Positions 54,001-60,000 of a DNA stretch of 64,000 nucleotides are shown one piece after another (the first letter of the stretch is position 1; each line of letters starts with the position of its first letter). Made by a program: the position numbers. Source of the DNA: an uncultured cyanobacterium (GTDB lineage: Bacteria; Cyanobacteriota; Cyanobacteriia; Cyanobacteriales; CAWCAG01); contig CAWCAG010000009.1 in assembly GCA_963793425.1 (NCBI GenBank), positions 480,001 to 544,000 of the forward strand, given 5' to 3'.

Positions 54001-57000
54001 GGTCACACAGGGAAAATGGAGGAAACAGTAAAGGCGATTGAAACAGTGGATAAATGTTTAGGTCAGCTTTTAGCAAGTGTCAATAAAGTTAGTGGCACTA
54101 CTTTGATTACTGCTGATCACGGTAATTCTGAGTATATGTGGGATGAACAAGGCAACCCTTGGACGGCTCATACCACTAATCCTGTACCCTTAATTATAGT
54201 TGAAGGAGAAGCAAGGAAAATCCCTGGTTATGGTGCAGAAGTTGAGATGCGAGAAGATGGTTGTTTAGCAGATATTGCACCAACTATTTTAGAGATTTTA
54301 CAATTACCTCAACCACAGGAAATGACTGGTAAGTCTTTAATTAAGCCTTTAGAGGTGGATTTTAAGCAAAATCGGACTCCGGTTAAAGTTTCTCTATAAA
54401 AACGAATATTCGTAAAGACACTAAGTATTACAGGGGATACTGTTGCTTAACTCCCCAAATTCTTAGTGTCTTACGGGTTAGGGAGTAACTATTTAGTAAA
54501 TAACAAATAATAGCCGATTTGCAACAGCTATTGTTGAATCAACTTCGTTGAATTATTCTGGTTATGGTTTTCACTTAAGCTCAACTCAATATCTATGACG
54601 AAGCTAAGAAGGTTAAAGCAGGAAAAAGGCTGGCTACGAACATGGCAAGCTTGCTTACCTCTAACTATAGTTATTCTGCTAATGTGGACTTCTGTAGGGT
54701 TGGCTCAACAAGAAGATACCTTAAGTTTGGAGTCTCTCAAAGTTGCCTTAGATACAGTCTGGGTTATTTTCACTGCCTGCTTAGTCTTCTTTATGAATGC
54801 AGGCTTTGCCATGTTGGAAACGGGGCTTTGTCGCAAAAGAAGTGCGGTCAATATCTTAGGAAAAAACCTCATTGTCTTCTGTTTGGCGACGGCTTCCTTT
54901 TGGGCTTTTGGTTTTGGCTTAATGTTTAGTGATGGGAATTTCTTTTTGGGAACCCAAGGATTTTTTCTTACGGGGGTAGATAATAGTCCCGCTATGGGGG
55001 ATAACTACCAAGGGGTTTTTACCTCTTTGAGTTGGACAGGAGTTCCTCTCAAGGCGAAATTCTTCTTCCAGTTAGTCTTTGCCGGAACTGCTGCTACCAT
55101 CGTTTCTGGGGCTGTTGCAGAACGTATTAAGTTTTTTGCTTTTGTTTTATTTAGCTTATTACTTGTGGCCCTTGCTTATCCCATCACCGGACATTGGGTT
55201 TGGGGAAATGGCTGGCTGTCTCATTTATTTGAAGATCAGCAAACTGGAGAGACAGTTTTAGCTTTTTGGGATTTTGCCGGTTCTACAATAGTTCACTCCG
55301 TAGGCGGTTGGGCAGCTTTAGTAGGGGCAGTTCTTTTGGGGCCACGTTTAGGTAAGTATCATCCTGACGGCACTACAGAACCTCTGTTAGGGACTGACGT
55401 GAGTATATCAACCTTGGGGTGTTTGATTCTCTGGTTAGGCTGGTTTGGCTTCAATCCTGGTTCAACCATGGCAGCTAACCCTAATGTGATTGTTCATATC
55501 ATCGTTGTGACCAATATGTCCGCAGCCGCAGGAGGAATTGCGGCTGCTATTGCCTCTTGGTGGTACTTCTCTCAACCGGATCTTTCGATGATCACTAATG
55601 GTATCTTGGGAGGGTTGGTTGGTATTACCGCTTCTTGTGCTTTTGTCAGTACTGGTTCAGCAGCGGTAATTGGTTTGGTAGCAGGGACTTTAATTGTTTT
55701 TGCTACAGAATTTTTAGACAGAATAAAAATTGATGACCCGGTGGGGGCGGTTCCTGTACACTTGGTTTGTGGTATTTGGGGGACTATAGCCGTTGGTCTG
55801 TTTAGTCAAGGTGCTGGCAACCTTTATGCCCAAGGTGAAGGTCCTATGGCAGGCTTATTTATGGGTGGCAATCTTGATGGGGTGAAGCAGCTATTGGTAC
55901 AGTTGGTTGGTATAGCTTCCGTTGGTATGTTTACAGTTTGTTTTAGTTGGCTAGTATGGTACGCAATTAAAAAAACTATTGGTATTCGCATACCCAAAAA
56001 GGTCGAATTAAGCAATATGAAAGAGTCAGAAGAATTTTAGTTATAGTCTGCTAGTTGCTAGTTGCTAGTTGCTAAAATCCAGACTTCAGAGAAGCTTTTA
56101 ATTCACTGATCATTGAATTGATCCTGAAGCATGAACTAATCCTAATAAAGGGCCATTTTGTTCTTTACCATTAACGGCTAAATCGCTGTGACAGAGAATG
56201 AGGCGTTCGTCAACTCTGCCTAATAAATCTTTTAAAATATTCACTAAGCGTTCCTCCTCCAATTGAGCATTTTCTTGTGGTGTTAAGGGCCGTCTTTCCC
56301 AGTTACGTAAAAAGAGATGGGAAGCGAATAAATTAGCCGCACCTCCTTTAGACCAAAGACTGGAACTCGCATCTAACCAAAAGTGCCAACGGTGAGAACG
56401 GCGACTAGAACGGTATTGAAAGATAGTGGCTAGGGTAATGGCTTCTTGCTTTAAGGCTTTTAGGGGTCGTAGGGGATAAGCATTGGCTGTGATAGTTCCC
56501 CTTCTCAGTAGTTGAATAAATTGGGCGATCGCAGCAGGATAAGATTTATCCCTGGTTTCGTTGTCCCTTAAGCGACGCTCCACTTGCCAATAATGTTGGG
56601 CAGTTTCCATTAGTTCTCTCAGGGCTGCTAGCTGATTGTAGGGCAAGTTAGGGGCGTTTTGCAAAAAGTGCTTGCTGGCAGCATCGAGGATATCAATAAC
56701 CCTTGGTAGGGGTTGGTCTGGGGATGATTTTTTTGTTTCTATCCACTGCGCTATATTTTGATATGCTTGGCTAGCTTGATGCCCTAAACGATCCCAACGA
56801 GGAAATGATTCTATAGCTAAAAGATGGGGTTGTCTTGGGTCAGGAAGGTAGCAATGGTCTGCTAATAAGCCAGCCCTAACTGGGTCAATTGCGGCAATTA
56901 ATTGACCTTCTCCTTGCTGTGTTCTGCTTAAAACCACTAACATTTCCGCTACAGCATCTTTGTCTACTAATCGCCCTAAATGAGGATAAATGAGTGTTAA

Positions 57001-60000
57001 TAAGGTGAGCAAAGCTCGAATAAGGGGAAAGCTGATTAAAGGACGCTGTTCGTTGAGTGCTTCGACAGCAATACCTTGGCTGGTTAGCATTTCTATTAAG
57101 CTGTAGCGGGCAATTTCATCTAAACCAGGGGCAATTAGCGCAATTTCTGAGGCTTTCACCTCTCCTTGTTTTATCCCTTGGATAATGGCATTGGCTGTTT
57201 CCCTTAATAAAGTAGCACGGGATGTAGCCTGAATTGATTGTACTGTTGGGGGTAAGCGGGGGATGAAAAGTTCCCCTTTAACCATTTGCACTATGGTTTC
57301 GTGCCAATCTCCTCCTAGTCCCCGTAAGGGTGTGGTGGTTAAGTCTTCGATTTGGCAATAGGCAGCTAAGTTGCCTAAATATTGAGGATCGGCGTTTAGT
57401 CCTAACCTAATTCCTCCTTGAGGATTGTAAGTAAAAACTCCTGTGGCCCCTTGGTCTAACAAAAATTGTAATAAATCTCCAGCGATCGCGGGGTAATCAT
57501 CAACATCATCAGCAAAGATAGCTTGGTAGCGACTGGTTAAATGTTGTTGGTAGGTGGGATTAGGCAGTAAATAACGCCAATATAATTCATAAATAACACC
57601 GTAACTGAGTAAACCCCTGGTTAAGCTCCATTGTCGCCACTCTAGAAGTAAGGTTGCCATATGTTGCCACAGGGGTATATCTTTTCCTTTGATGGTGATT
57701 ACAGAGTTTTCCCACTCTTGTTCCGGCAATCCCAAGGCGAGAATATCAGCGATCGCTTCTGTTTCTGTACCACTGGCCCCAGCTAATTGCAACAAATCTA
57801 AAGTTTGTCGCACTAAACGAGATTCCATGACACCAGATAGTTGTAAATCACCCTGTTGCCAGGACTTACGCCACAATTGAGTTGCTAATTCCTGTTCTGT
57901 TTCTGGCCGTAATCGGAGGGGGAATTGTGCTTTTAAATCAAGCAATTCAAAAAGCAATGGCCAAAAAAGCATCACCTCATCAGAAATAAATCCTAAAGGA
58001 GTTTTAGAAATGACCGGATAGCTACCTTGAATGGCGATCGCTAGTTGATCAGCTAACTCTCGTCGATTATCATCATTCGCTGCAAAAACTAAGATAGCTG
58101 GACTTAATTGCCCCAAAAACTGTCTTTTACTTAGTTTTACTGTTACCCATTGCCTAAATTCTCTGACTAGCTGAGTAGTTTTACCACTACGAGTTAGTCC
58201 AATGATCCATTTTTTCAATTGCCTTGGCATTTTTACTATAGGCTAATCTTATAATATACTCCATACACTCTGAGCTATCTTATTCTAGGCATTCTGTCAG
58301 AATTGGATACAATCGATATTCTTTCTCTTCATTTTCCTCTAGAGTATTTCTATGGAACTTAGAGCTATCTTTCGTACAGCTAAGCGTTGGTTTTCAGGTA
58401 CTCCAGACCGAGCTTTAGAACAAGCTTACCGTGCTGCTTTAACTATTAAAGCCCTTGAGGATGAATATTTTGATGGGCAGAAAGTACCGACTGATTCTTC
58501 TCAATATGGCGACAGGGTTATCTCCTACTGTAATGCAGAAATCAAGAAAAACTTAAAACTTGCTAAAGTTAGGTTGGCTGAATTTAAAACCAGTAGCTCA
58601 TTTATCAATACAGGAGATATTTATAACAATGACTTAGCTGATATTTATGGGAATTATGATGAAGAGGTTCGAGAAAAAGCAGCGGTTTTTATTGATAAGC
58701 TTAAGTTTATTGATGAGGTTATTTCTAAATATGAAACCCAAAGAGATTCTGCAAAAAAATCCCTTTCTTTGGTTGAGGTTAAGTCTCCAACCAACAAGGT
58801 TAATGTTACAGAGAGTCTACCTAGTAAATCTCAAAATAAGAGTTTAATTAACACTCAAAATAGCAAACTCTCTTTACCAACTCAGTCTCAGAAGTTTGTC
58901 AAAGAAGAAGGAACAAATTTAGAAACTGTTACTGACAAAACAGGAGTTTTACCAAGGTCTATATTGCGTACCCTCAAACGGATCAGGCGAGAAATAGATC
59001 CCCAATCAAGAGAAACAGAAGATGAAGTTATTAAGAAATTTCGCCGTTCTCGCGACAAAACAGCAATTTCTGTTAAATTCCTACTACTTTTGATTATTGT
59101 CCCTTTATTAACTCACCAAGTTGCTAAAACTTTTATCTTGAGTCCTCTAATCAAAACCAACTTTTTCCCTGAAAATAGTGAGGTTGTTTTTGTTAATGAA
59201 GATATGCAAGAAGAAGCTTTTACAGAGTTACATCGCTACGAAGAGAGTCTTCATTTCAAAAGTTTAATTGGCTTAGCTCCAGAAATATCTGCCCCAGAAA
59301 TAGAAGAAAAAATCAAAGAAAAAGCGCAAGAAATTGCTGAAGAATATCGCTATCAGGGTACAGATGTAATTGGCAACATATTTGGTGATATTTTTTCGTT
59401 AGTTGCCTTTGTTTGGATTATCTTAGTTAGTAAAAGAGAAATCGCGATTTTAAAATCGTTTTTAGATGAAATAATTTACGGTTTAAGTGATTCTGCTAAA
59501 GCTTTTTTAATTATTTTGTTCACAGATATGTTTGTTGGTTTCCACTCTCCCCATGGTTGGGAGGTTATTCTTGAAGGTGTTGCTCGACATTTTGGCATAC
59601 CGGAAAGCCGCGATTTTAACTTCTTATTTATCGCCACTTTTCCAGTTATTTTAGACACTGTTTTGAAGTATTGGATTTTCCGCTACCTCAATCGTATTTC
59701 TCCTTCTTCAGTGGCTACTTATCGAAATATGAATGAATAGATAATGGCTAATTGCTAATTGCTAATTGCTAATTGCTAATTGGGGTGTATCTCATCAGAG
59801 GGAGTAGAATTTGCAGAATATCCTCAAGAGTTTGCAACTTTAGTTAACCAAGGTATGGCATACGATTATTCTTGGCATCAGCCGGGAGAAAACTATTTGG
59901 GTGTTTATGAATATATTCGTTGTCCTCCTAATTAACTAACTCAGGCATCTTTTCGGTCATCTGAAATCGATAGGACATTCCGTAACCCGAACCTTCAAAG

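Follow-up and report, generated by a model that had tools for sequence, protein, structure and literature searches.

The 706-aa open reading frame analysed here is a superfamily-1 (SF1) pseudo-helicase, and appears to be the N-terminal portion, with a dead motor, of an AdnA- or AddB-type subunit. Its partner is likely the second UvrD-type helicase of the same genome, together with a free nuclease and a RecJ. We consider it probable that they constitute a split helicase-nuclease of the AdnAB/AddAB type for double-stranded DNA ends, in which the pseudo-helicase is the motor-dead scaffold subunit. The gene lies in a 64,000-nucleotide stretch of an uncultured cyanobacterium (the window; Table 1). 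The genome-wide survey's note had placed it correctly within the window, but gave a wrong contig offset (512000); the window is C9:480001-544000.

Table 1. The pseudo-helicase locus and its probable partner genes (positions in the window unless a contig is named)
Feature	Position	Strand	Remarks
Pseudo-helicase gene	56110..58230	-	706 aa; four-subdomain SF1 body
Walker A, residues 11-18	58177..58200	-	G11 57/60, G16 58/60, K17 54/60, T18 53/60
Degenerate Walker B, residues 241-245	57496..57510	-	Asp in place of the catalytic Glu, as in AdnA
Signature Asp-Pro-Val-Arg-Ala-Gly, residues 449-454	56869..56886	-	D449 92/92, R452 91/92
Arg672, presumptive motif VI arginine	56215..56217	-	kept in 85/92; assigned by position
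Intergenic region, 121 bp	58231..58351	.	between the divergent pseudo-helicase gene and pxcA
pxcA (CemA family)	58352..59740	+	conserved neighbour; does not belong to the system
Motor, UvrD-type, 792 aa	G000:C7:151710-154088	+	outside the window; all helicase motifs
Free Fe-S PD-(D/E)XK nuclease, 267 aa	C7:179327-180130	-	outside the window
Long RecJ, 771 aa	C9:880566-882881	+	outside the window

Fold and motifs of the pseudo-helicase

As the genome-wide survey's note had reported, the protein has no Pfam or NCBIfam family (nothing at E ≤ 1) and is called a "recombinase family protein" in databases. Its SF1 helicase fold was borne out by a model built from 60 sequences (pLDDT 92, pTM 0.91). 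Foldseek matched this model to UvrD at E 5e-17, with the best TM-scores to AdnB (0.65) and AddB (0.60), and the whole chain could be superimposed on AdnB (599 residues, 4.2 Å), AdnA (559 residues, 4.9 Å), and AddB (610 residues, 5.4 Å), at a structural identity to AdnAB of 12-16%. The top rows by Foldseek E-value and by VIA Z are PcrA, UvrD, and Rep, rather than AdnA or AddB. The body covers residues 19-712 of AdnA and 2-699 of AddB, and stops where those subunits continue into a linker and nuclease. Contrary to the earlier claim that there is no sequence hit to the PDB, the first match of the family profile was AdnA (E 7e-10).

As previously noted, Walker A is kept and the Walker B glutamate is lost; in the present alignment the glutamate is absent from 92/92 sequences. 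The second position of Walker B is D in 55, N in four, W in one, and E in none of 60 aligned sequences; with distant relatives included (n = 92), position 242 is D in 61, N in 25, G in three, H in two, W in one, and again never E. The motif III-V consensus of active helicases has likewise been lost from the family. It is too strong to say, however, that the later motifs are not recognisable, given the arginine retained at the presumptive motif VI position (R672). Fold and glutamate loss together support the original description of a degenerate UvrD/AddB-like pseudo-helicase. Walker A may still bind nucleotide, as it does in AdnA, where AMPPNP occupies the motor-like domain (available text of PMC13000450). 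The predicted contact with the 2B subdomain of the motor centres on the signature sequence, and AdnA carries Asp-Pro-Val at the aligned place.

Several other identities were rejected. Neither a serine recombinase (no Pfam domain at E ≤ 1) nor a membrane protein is compatible with a chain that folds as an SF1 helicase throughout, and the PD-(D/E)XK domain ascribed to the Synechococcus elongatus orthologue Synpcc7942_0992 by PMC10653904 was not found in the orthologue studied here, the whole of which is accounted for by the helicase fold. Matches to GajB are indeed weak (E 2e-4 to 1e-2, 13-19 bits; PADLOC), and the neighbours are amt and pxcA, with no adjacent GajA, which argues against a Gabija system.

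Probable partner genes, operons, and distribution

The genome was thought to hold separate canonical PcrA genes; we found one PcrA (773 aa), and the other UvrD-like gene (792 aa) probably encodes the partner. The predicted complex of this motor with the pseudo-helicase scored an ipSAE of 0.72 in three runs (at least 52% of contacts in agreement; partner pLDDT at least 75), and the best of three controls scored 0.00. The mark applied to ipSAE was attained by 116/157 solved pairs and 2/215 mismatched pairs, and the score obtained here may arise through likeness to AdnAB/AddAB. No PD-(D/E)XK domain was found in the 706-aa or the 792-aa protein, nor in 120 relatives of the motor among the matches listed.

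Such a domain is carried by the free nuclease, whose catalytic residues (E101, D118, D131, and K133) are all conserved in 69/69 sequences and whose Fe-S staple is nearly so (C22 and C231 69/69, C234 65/69, C240 62/69). The top structural match to its model was the AdnA nuclease (Z 18.0, 2.9 Å over 218 residues), followed by the Argonaute helper ACE1 (Z 15.8). By profile, the AdnB nuclease (38 bits) ranked above that of AdnA (27 bits); as the AdnB nuclease is unresolved in DNA-bound structures, its absence from the fold list is uninformative. A single-sequence search of the PDB with the nuclease gave no match.

The earlier note counted the pseudo-helicase in 21 of 21 Cyanobacteriia and in 0 of 40 other members of the phylum, and took it to be core to oxygenic cyanobacteria. 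In our larger samples, in which kin genomes make the counts non-independent, it was found in 58/61 and 217/251 Cyanobacteriia and was missing from one whole family (f19, 0/81). Elsewhere in the phylum the profile matched 79/90 genomes, weakest matches included, and all 20 loci fetched contained a genuine member of the family. Bacillota, Chloroflexota, and Salinibacter have relatives as well. The earlier wording is thus too narrow, since non-photosynthetic classes and other phyla have the gene, and too wide, since the RecC-bearing f19 and a few other lineages lack it. In Cyanobacteriia, the gene is single-copy, near-universal, and chromosomal, beside housekeeping genes.

Pseudo-helicase, motor, and nuclease are present in the same 58 of the 61 Cyanobacteriia and missing from the same three. 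The long RecJ accompanies them in 57 of the 58, with its gene no more than 4.5 kb downstream of that for the nuclease in 25/57, and is found in none of the three others. None of the 58 has the RecC family (PF04257), none of the 61 has the AddB N-domain (PF21445, ADDB_N), and in f19 RecC was found in 78/81 genomes. There are exceptions to this exclusion: in G088 RecC coexists with all three genes, G010 and G025 combine a canonical AddB with the operon, and in family f25 the pseudo-helicase matched in 7/9 genomes and RecC in 9/9, with no motor or nuclease found. Genus g40 lacks the pseudo-helicase and motor, and in one genome, G119, RecC and AddB are missing as well, so a recognised machine of this kind is dispensable to cyanobacteria.

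In other lineages the genes stand together. Pseudo-helicase, motor, and nuclease are adjacent at 8/15 unfused loci of non-oxygenic Cyanobacteriota, and all four genes lie in a row on the Salinibacter plasmid pSR56. A metagenome scan with the Carboxydocella pseudo-helicase gave no locus, so the Bacillota-type operons are known through a query with a Bacillota motor, which returned ~80 metagenome loci, many of them near-duplicates. Where there was room, the pseudo-helicase was upstream of the motor at 69/74 (the other five lacking it within the flank), the nuclease was downstream at 74/74, and recJ came next at 59/67. In family f24, pseudo-helicase and motor are a single open reading frame of ~1,290 aa followed by the nuclease gene (5/5 fetched loci), and the motor match fell inside frames of at least 1,259 aa in 57/57 genomes. 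Two more fusions of this kind were found. A search for pseudo-helicase/nuclease fusions longer than 1,314 aa, which is a weak test, found none; the fusions that it did find are with the motor only. The pseudo-helicase matched once in 72,556 plasmids and not at all in 50,697 phage records.

Genetics in Synechococcus elongatus and alternative explanations

A look-up of ten proteins gave no named S. elongatus orthologue, and we therefore assigned orthology by gene order and length. The four genes correspond to Synpcc7942_0992, _2515, _2273, and _0517, all non-essential. Two other candidates for the partner, Synpcc7942_1518 and _2168, were set aside (fitness -1.24 and 0.003); the neighbourhood of the motor matches _2515. 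In a published RSF1010 screen of 1,886 genes, the top six were ago (5.58), rpoD2 (3.56), and then the four orthologues (nuclease 3.39, motor 2.39, pseudo-helicase 2.26, RecJ 2.24), loss of any of which rescues RSF1010 plasmids. Their loss also raises transformation (nuclease +2.68, motor +1.34, pseudo-helicase +1.11, RecJ +1.12). Natural transformation itself needs recombination. Neutral-site recombination after conjugation scored -0.02 for the nuclease, -0.51 for the motor, -0.35 for the pseudo-helicase, and -0.26 for RecJ. The phenotype of the nuclease mutant is stronger than those of its partners, so the nuclease may act partly alone. Two hours after UV all four genes were induced (log2 +0.57 to +1.66), and in UV RB-TnSeq their fitness was about 0 at three doses, that is, the mutants are not UV-sensitive; that paper gives phr, uvrC, and ssb as its DNA-repair hits. 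Both this tolerance of UV and the rise in transformation count against a role of the unit in repair. S. elongatus is said, without gene identifiers, to encode AddAB (available text of PMC10269773); a named S. elongatus control had no match to PF21445 or PF04257.

These phenotypes could mean that the four genes mainly restrict plasmids and other foreign DNA, as a Gabija- or ACE1-like module that makes guides or degrades DNA, and have little to do with break repair. The strongest effects do concern plasmid maintenance and transformation, alongside ago; the mutants tolerate UV; ACE1 is the next-best nuclease fold and GajB matches exist; and there is one plasmid copy, as well as coexistence with AddAB or RecC in three genomes. 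We nevertheless regard this explanation as improbable, although it overlaps with end resection. Single-copy, near-universal, chromosomal genes are unlike patchy defence systems, RecBCD replaces the unit across the whole of f19, the genes respond to UV, and the motor and pseudo-helicase mutants are slightly defective in recombination. RecBCD and AddAB themselves feed Argonautes (available text of PMC12094033), and transformation is likewise improved in a Thermus strain deleted for addAB/ppol, with the second deletion as a confounding factor (available text of PMC13140390).

Alternatively, the pseudo-helicase might do no more than activate the motor, or serve as its scaffold, where forks stall or gaps occur, with nuclease and RecJ in the same pathway and no single complex. 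UvrD-family helicases need a dimer partner, the modelled complex covers the motor contact only, oxygenic cyanobacteria have the genes at dispersed sites, loss of the nuclease has an effect of a different size, and the best E-values are to PcrA/UvrD. We think this very unlikely, in view of the nuclease and recJ genes that so regularly follow the motor, a nuclease fold nearest to the AdnA resection nuclease, and the exclusion with RecC. The conserved neighbour invites another proposal, namely, that the protein acts together with PxcA to extrude protons or control pH. The gene order is real (pxcA lies directly upstream, head-to-head, at 70 of the 72 loci with room; 79 loci, seven without room), and database labels such as "membrane protein in cluster with PxcA" and "pcx" point the same way. 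The function does not follow, however: the fold is that of a helicase, the S. elongatus mutants have opposite fitness in the RSF1010 screen (pseudo-helicase +2.26, pxcA -1.24), the UV responses differ (+1.06 versus -0.22), and at 20 loci of non-oxygenic genomes pxcA was absent among the matches listed, the neighbours being motor, nuclease, and recJ. The partnership is largely refuted and, in our opinion, scarcely credible.

Proposed mechanism and known resection machines

For a split helicase-nuclease, which we favor, the following scheme can be drawn for most cyanobacteria and for scattered Bacillota, Chloroflexota, and Rhodothermota. The pseudo-helicase would bind the 2B subdomain of its dedicated UvrD-type motor, which, by analogy with AdnAB, would unwind 3′→5′ and pump the 3′ strand through the pseudo-helicase. 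With no nuclease tail on the motor, cutting would fall to the free Fe-S nuclease and to the dedicated long RecJ, a presumptive 5′→3′ exonuclease, both of which are encoded in the motor's operon in other lineages. Given a complex, there is about an even chance that the nuclease is the detached nuclease and wedge of AdnA and acts on the 5′ strand, which would leave a 3′ tail for RecA without a Chi switch; a less probable arrangement has it cutting the 3′ strand as it leaves the pseudo-helicase, with RecJ taking the 5′ strand. The unit would stand in for RecBCD/AddAB, aid recombination modestly, and destroy incoming linear and plasmid DNA, the fragments of which are probably fed to Argonaute where one exists.

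Mycobacterium smegmatis AdnAB (PDB 6PPJ, 6PPR, 7SJR, and 9NP6) likewise has an SF1 body that is motor-dead yet retains Walker A, with Asp-Asp in Walker B and an Asp-Pro-Val motif; it also shares a partner motor with all motifs and a four-Cys Fe-S staple on the AdnA nuclease, the nearest fold to the nuclease that is a separate polypeptide here. It differs in having a nuclease fused to each subunit, as opposed to one free nuclease, a dedicated RecJ in the operon, dispersed genes in oxygenic cyanobacteria, and the pseudo-helicase/motor fusion in f24. Likewise, the chain fits AddB of Bacillus subtilis AddAB (PDB 3U4Q and 4CEH), and the Fe-S nuclease resembles AddB's (Z 14.5), but the pseudo-helicase lacks PF21445, the motor scores 82 bits against an AddA cut-off of 708 bits, and there is no AddA nuclease. 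RecBCD also pairs an inactive helicase with a 3′→5′ motor and occupies the complementary set of genomes; in contrast, the pseudo-helicase has no RecC family match, the operons hold no RecD-like gene, and the nuclease is a separate Fe-S protein. ACE1/solo-Cas4 of cyanobacterial Argonaute systems is a free Fe-S Cas4-like nuclease of ~270 aa (Z 15.5-15.8), and the unit is linked genetically to Argonaute in S. elongatus, but ACE1 lies beside pAgo and is described as having no helicase (available text of PMC12094033), whereas the nuclease here is accompanied by motor, pseudo-helicase, and RecJ and occurs nearly throughout the class. An unfused Clostridiales operon of UvrD and a Cas4-like protein, noted as a likely repair operon (Hudaiberdiev 2017, PMC5704561), is possibly the same motor-nuclease pair, judging by its description; the available part of that account names no pseudo-helicase, RecJ, or cyanobacteria.

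The literature searched, in which subscription papers are thinly covered, held no account of the four-gene unit. We tentatively suggest that bacterial end-resection machines could comprise, in addition to RecBCD, AddAB, and AdnAB, a fourth class represented by this unit, built of four separate subunits with an integral RecJ in place of one fused nuclease, ancestral in Cyanobacteriota and common to Bacillota, Chloroflexota, and Rhodothermota. According to published accounts, RecBCD and AddAB are missing from most cyanobacteria, and there is no explanation of how guides for their Argonautes arise (PMC5101192 and PMC12094033, available text). If the scheme is correct, the unit would be the missing double-strand-break resector of oxygenic cyanobacteria and would also provide the guides of stand-alone Argonautes (SeAgo, for example); being modular, it could reveal how the fused enzymes came to be put together. 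The assignments also correct three misleading labels (recombinase, membrane protein, and pcx) and unite four unexplained hits from two genome-wide screens. As the four genes are named and non-essential in a model strain, the unit is testable at once, and deleting them may improve both transformation and the stability of plasmids in engineered cyanobacteria.

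A complete helicase body beside pxcA

No family was recognized by Pfam or NCBIfam in the product of the gene adjacent to pxcA, which databases name either "recombinase family protein" or "membrane protein in cluster with PxcA". The genome-wide survey's note had called it a degenerate UvrD/AddB-like helicase that keeps Walker A. The observation is real but was misdescribed in part, and it is of greater interest than that first reading suggested. Based on a confident model built from 60 sequences (pLDDT 92, pTM 0.91), the predicted protein is a complete superfamily-1 helicase body. 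In an alignment of relatives, Walker A is retained and the Walker B glutamate is missing from all 60 cyanobacterial-type sequences (92/92 in total), so this reading is borne out. The view that later motifs are unrecognizable holds for motifs III–V, whose consensus is gone, but not for motif VI, where an arginine, assigned by position only, persists in 85 of 92 sequences. Subdomain names (1A, 1B, 2A, 2B) and motif numbering follow general usage. An offset of 512000 in the same note does not match the window, which is C9:480001-544000 (C9, contig CAWCAG010000009.1).

Ranked by E-value and by Z, the model's top matches were PcrA, UvrD, and Rep, but these fits were partial (422–479 residues at 4–5 Å) or loose (9–11 Å). 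The long, tight fits were instead to resection subunits: AdnB (4.2 Å over 599 residues), AdnA 19–712 (4.9 Å over 559 residues), and AddB 2–699 (5.4 Å over 610 residues), and the chain stops where the linker and nuclease begin in AdnA and AddB. The top match of a 92-sequence profile was likewise AdnA (41 bits, E 7e-10), with UvrD behind (39 bits). In the profile alignment, AdnA has the same Asp-Asp Walker B, and its Asp-Pro-Val motif aligns at the family's invariant D449. The motor-like domain of AdnA is described as binding AMPPNP, with ATPase and helicase activity driven by AdnB alone (PMC13000450), and the retained Walker A of the pseudo-helicase fits such nucleotide binding.

Locations of the pseudo-helicase gene, two partner genes, and a plasmid-borne operon (C7, contig of the genome under study; L255, a comparison locus)
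Feature	Position	Strand	Remarks
Pseudo-helicase gene, 706 aa	window 56110-58230	(-)	head-to-head with pxcA, 121 bp between
Motor gene, 792 aa, motifs intact, without nuclease tail	C7:151710-154088		UvrD-family match
Nuclease gene, 267 aa, one N-terminal and three C-terminal Cys	C7:179327-180130		PD-(D/E)XK match
Four-gene operon	L255, Salinibacter ruber M8 plasmid pSR56, 10001-17884		56-kb plasmid

Elsewhere in the window (51362-52480, +) lies the gene for a KGK-domain protein (PF08872) whose long acidic tail includes a duplicated ~37-aa block.

Candidate partners and a predicted complex

The genome contains three UvrD-family matches, namely PcrA (773 aa), an unrelated 1,437-aa protein, and the 792-aa helicase that we term the motor. 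One of three PD-(D/E)XK matches is a free nuclease, and RecJ is encoded twice (771 and 677 aa). The best structural match of the nuclease model (pLDDT 91) is the AdnA nuclease (788–1039; Z 18.0, 2.9 Å, 218 residues), followed by ACE1, RecE, AddB, and RecB (Z 15.8, 14.9, 14.5, and 10.4), whereas its sequence profile scores the AdnB nuclease at 38 bits and the AdnA nuclease at 27 bits.

The motor (residues 36–656) and pseudo-helicase (325–703), trimmed to the size limit, were modeled as a pair. The ipSAE was 0.72 in three runs, versus 0.00 for the best of three controls; the ipSAE mark is reached by 116 of 157 solved pairs and 2 of 215 mismatched ones. Between runs, 52% or more of contacts recurred, with a partner pLDDT of at least 75. 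The modeled pair may owe its pass to likeness to AdnAB or AddAB. Confidently predicted contacts on the motor side fall in residues 506–614, in the 2B region (P508 in 78/85 sequences, E540 in 72/85), and on the pseudo-helicase side in 449–458, 337–339, 371–380, 481–485, and 684–689. The latter segments hold the surface residues that are most conserved in the pseudo-helicase (D449 92/92, R452 91/92, R481 90/92, G688 91/92).

Several other observations concern these families. The C-terminal cysteine cluster is altered in 7 of 68 nucleases (L265, L268, L270, L273, L274, L275, and L277), all from oxygenic cyanobacteria, a sequence change that suggests loss or alteration of an Fe-S cluster. The 1,437-aa protein (L003, C7:890992-895305, -) combines a weak UvrD match (24 bits) with a long N-terminal extension and a helical C-terminal half. 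A 918-aa protein with a PD-(D/E)XK domain (L005, C1:387605-390361, -) lies downstream of two unlabeled genes and is flanked by an apparent 3′-5′ exonuclease and an FtsK-like ATPase, labels that we assigned by reading motifs; the locus is possibly a defense system.

Operons, fusions, and distribution

The note had also considered the gene absent from other members of the phylum; this was not borne out, as a profile matches 79 non-oxygenic Cyanobacteriota genomes, in addition to relatives in other phyla. We took 20 loci from these genomes. In all five from family f24 (genomes of about 2 Mb), pseudo-helicase and motor are fused in one ORF of 1,275–1,309 aa, followed immediately by the nuclease gene (three identified by phmmer match, two by evident likeness), and in all 57 f24 genomes the frame that contains the motor match is 1,259 aa or longer. 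All three genes are adjacent in 8 of the 15 unfused loci, seven with the order pseudo-helicase, motor, nuclease and one (L096) with the nuclease in between. Of the others, one at a contig end holds pseudo-helicase and motor, one has the pseudo-helicase beside recJ, and in five family f25 loci (L100, L101, L102, L104, and L106) a pseudo-helicase lacking partners stands directly behind what, from its sequence, we take to be efp. These f25 genomes bear RecC, motor and nuclease were not found in them, and the lone gene may be a relic or have taken on a new role. Among the loci taken, 8 also hold a recJ gene.

pSR56 was the sole match among 72,556 plasmids. Its pseudo-helicase, helicase, nuclease, and recJ genes are consecutive, so the four-gene unit can be mobile. 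With the Anoxybacter motor as query, we found 80 metagenome loci, many of them near-duplicates. Where there was room, the pseudo-helicase is upstream of the motor in 69/74 and the nuclease downstream in 74/74, then recJ in 59/67. Named relatives occur in Carboxydocella, Natroniella, and Alkalithermobacter, together with Chloroflexota clusters and motors of Ca. Sericytochromatia.

Nor is the gene present in every sampled member of Cyanobacteriia, as had been claimed. In a 151-genome sample, pseudo-helicase, motor, and nuclease occur together in 58 of 61 Cyanobacteriia, and the remaining three lack them all. The C-terminal part of the long RecJ is present in 57 of the 58 and in none of the three, and in 25 of the 57 this RecJ is encoded at most 4.5 kb downstream of the nuclease, which is an operon remnant. 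RecC was found in 0/58 genomes with the three genes, and the AddB N-domain in 0/61 Cyanobacteriia. A wider class sample gave 217/251, with f19 (0/25), f21 (1/8), and f43 (0/1) as groups that lack or nearly lack the gene; outside the 217, G322 has a divergent 587-aa copy plus the motor. Family f19 (1.6–3.9 Mb), which we take to be picocyanobacteria, has the pseudo-helicase in 0/81 genomes and RecC in 78/81. Picocyanobacteria are reported to carry recBCD (PMC5101192). In G241 (f43), neighboring nuclease-bearing ORFs of 829 and 1,077 aa (C6:41148-44839) resemble an AddAB pair and are likely an AddAB-type replacement in a cyanobacterium without the system. Exclusion is not strict: all three genes accompany RecC in G088, the operon coexists with AddB in G010 and G025, and 7 of 9 f25 genomes keep a pseudo-helicase match alongside RecC, with neither motor nor nuclease found. 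Oxygenic genus g40 (G119, G257, and G285; about 3 Mb) has no pseudo-helicase or motor, and G119 also gave no RecC or AddB match and thus has no recognized end-resection enzyme. Related genomes are non-independent, and we therefore state no p-value.

Published genetics and a proposed split end-processing machine

According to the PMC10653904 supplement, in Synechococcus elongatus PCC 7942 Synpcc7942_0992 and pxcA are arranged divergently, argF and glgA flank "uvrD" (_2515), folK and chlD flank "cas4" (_2273), and recJcy (_0517) is located between a permease gene and ctpB. In genome G053, the best matches of our four proteins occupy these same neighborhoods, and their lengths equal those in the published table (motor 755, nuclease 255, RecJ 775 aa) or nearly so (pseudo-helicase 656 aa, listed as 665), which fixes the orthology.

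The four genes are among the top six of 1,886 in the RSF1010 screen (ago 5.58, rpoD2 3.56, _2273 3.39, _2515 2.39, _0992 2.26, _0517 2.24), in which pxcA scored -1.24 and pcrA 0.003 (PMC10653904); its authors leave the roles of the four genes open. Supplementary natural transformation values are +2.68 for _2273, +1.34 for _2515, +1.11 for _0992, and +1.12 for _0517, with ago at +5.16 and pxcA at +0.54 (PMC7125226). For neutral-site integration after conjugation, the values are -0.02 for _2273, -0.51 for _2515 (t -4.9), -0.35 for _0992 (t -3.2), and -0.26 for _0517 (t -2.8) (PMC10653904). Motor, pseudo-helicase, and RecJ covary across the three screens, a pattern expected of subunits, whereas the nuclease differs. 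In the PMC9659335 supplement, UV induces the genes at 2 h (log2 +1.51 for _2273, +1.66 for _2515, +1.06 for _0992, +0.57 for _0517; pxcA -0.22), and their mutants show no fitness cost at three UV doses.

We consider it likely that the four genes encode a split end-processing machine. By analogy with AdnAB, the motor would load on a DNA end, unwind it 3′→5′, and pump the 3′ strand through the pseudo-helicase. The free nuclease might be the detached AdnA domain, serving as wedge and 5′-strand cutter with degradation extended by RecJ; the arguments for this are its Fe-S staple, its closest fold match being the AdnA nuclease, and the gene order in L096. Alternatively, it might cut the 3′ strand, with 5′ activity coming from RecJ, a 5′→3′ exonuclease; the usual gene order, the AdnB-favoring profile, the constant presence of RecJ, and the phenotype of nuclease loss (no recombination cost and the largest transformation boost of the four) argue for this variant. 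Either way, incoming DNA would be degraded, yielding fragments that could load SeAgo. Other Argonautes are reported to be loaded by RecBCD/AddAB products (PMC12094033). The main rival is a role centered on defense, which is favored by the lack of UV sensitivity in the mutants; for a resection machine, the same result implies that repair is redundant or minor under the conditions tested.

The four-gene unit would, by analogy, work like AdnAB/AddAB, yet fails membership: it has no fused nucleases, one nuclease rather than two, and a dedicated RecJ, and, unlike AddAB and RecBCD, no AddB or RecC family match. Most cyanobacteria are described as lacking RecBCD and AddAB (PMC5101192; PMC12094033), although AddAB is asserted for S. 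elongatus, without gene identifiers in the relevant passage (PMC10269773). In the open literature, with subscription papers and bioRxiv supplements outside our reach, neither the four-gene unit nor the identity of the pseudo-helicase was found described. An operon of an unfused UvrD and a Cas4-like protein is reported in Clostridiales (PMC5704561) and is perhaps part of the same unit.
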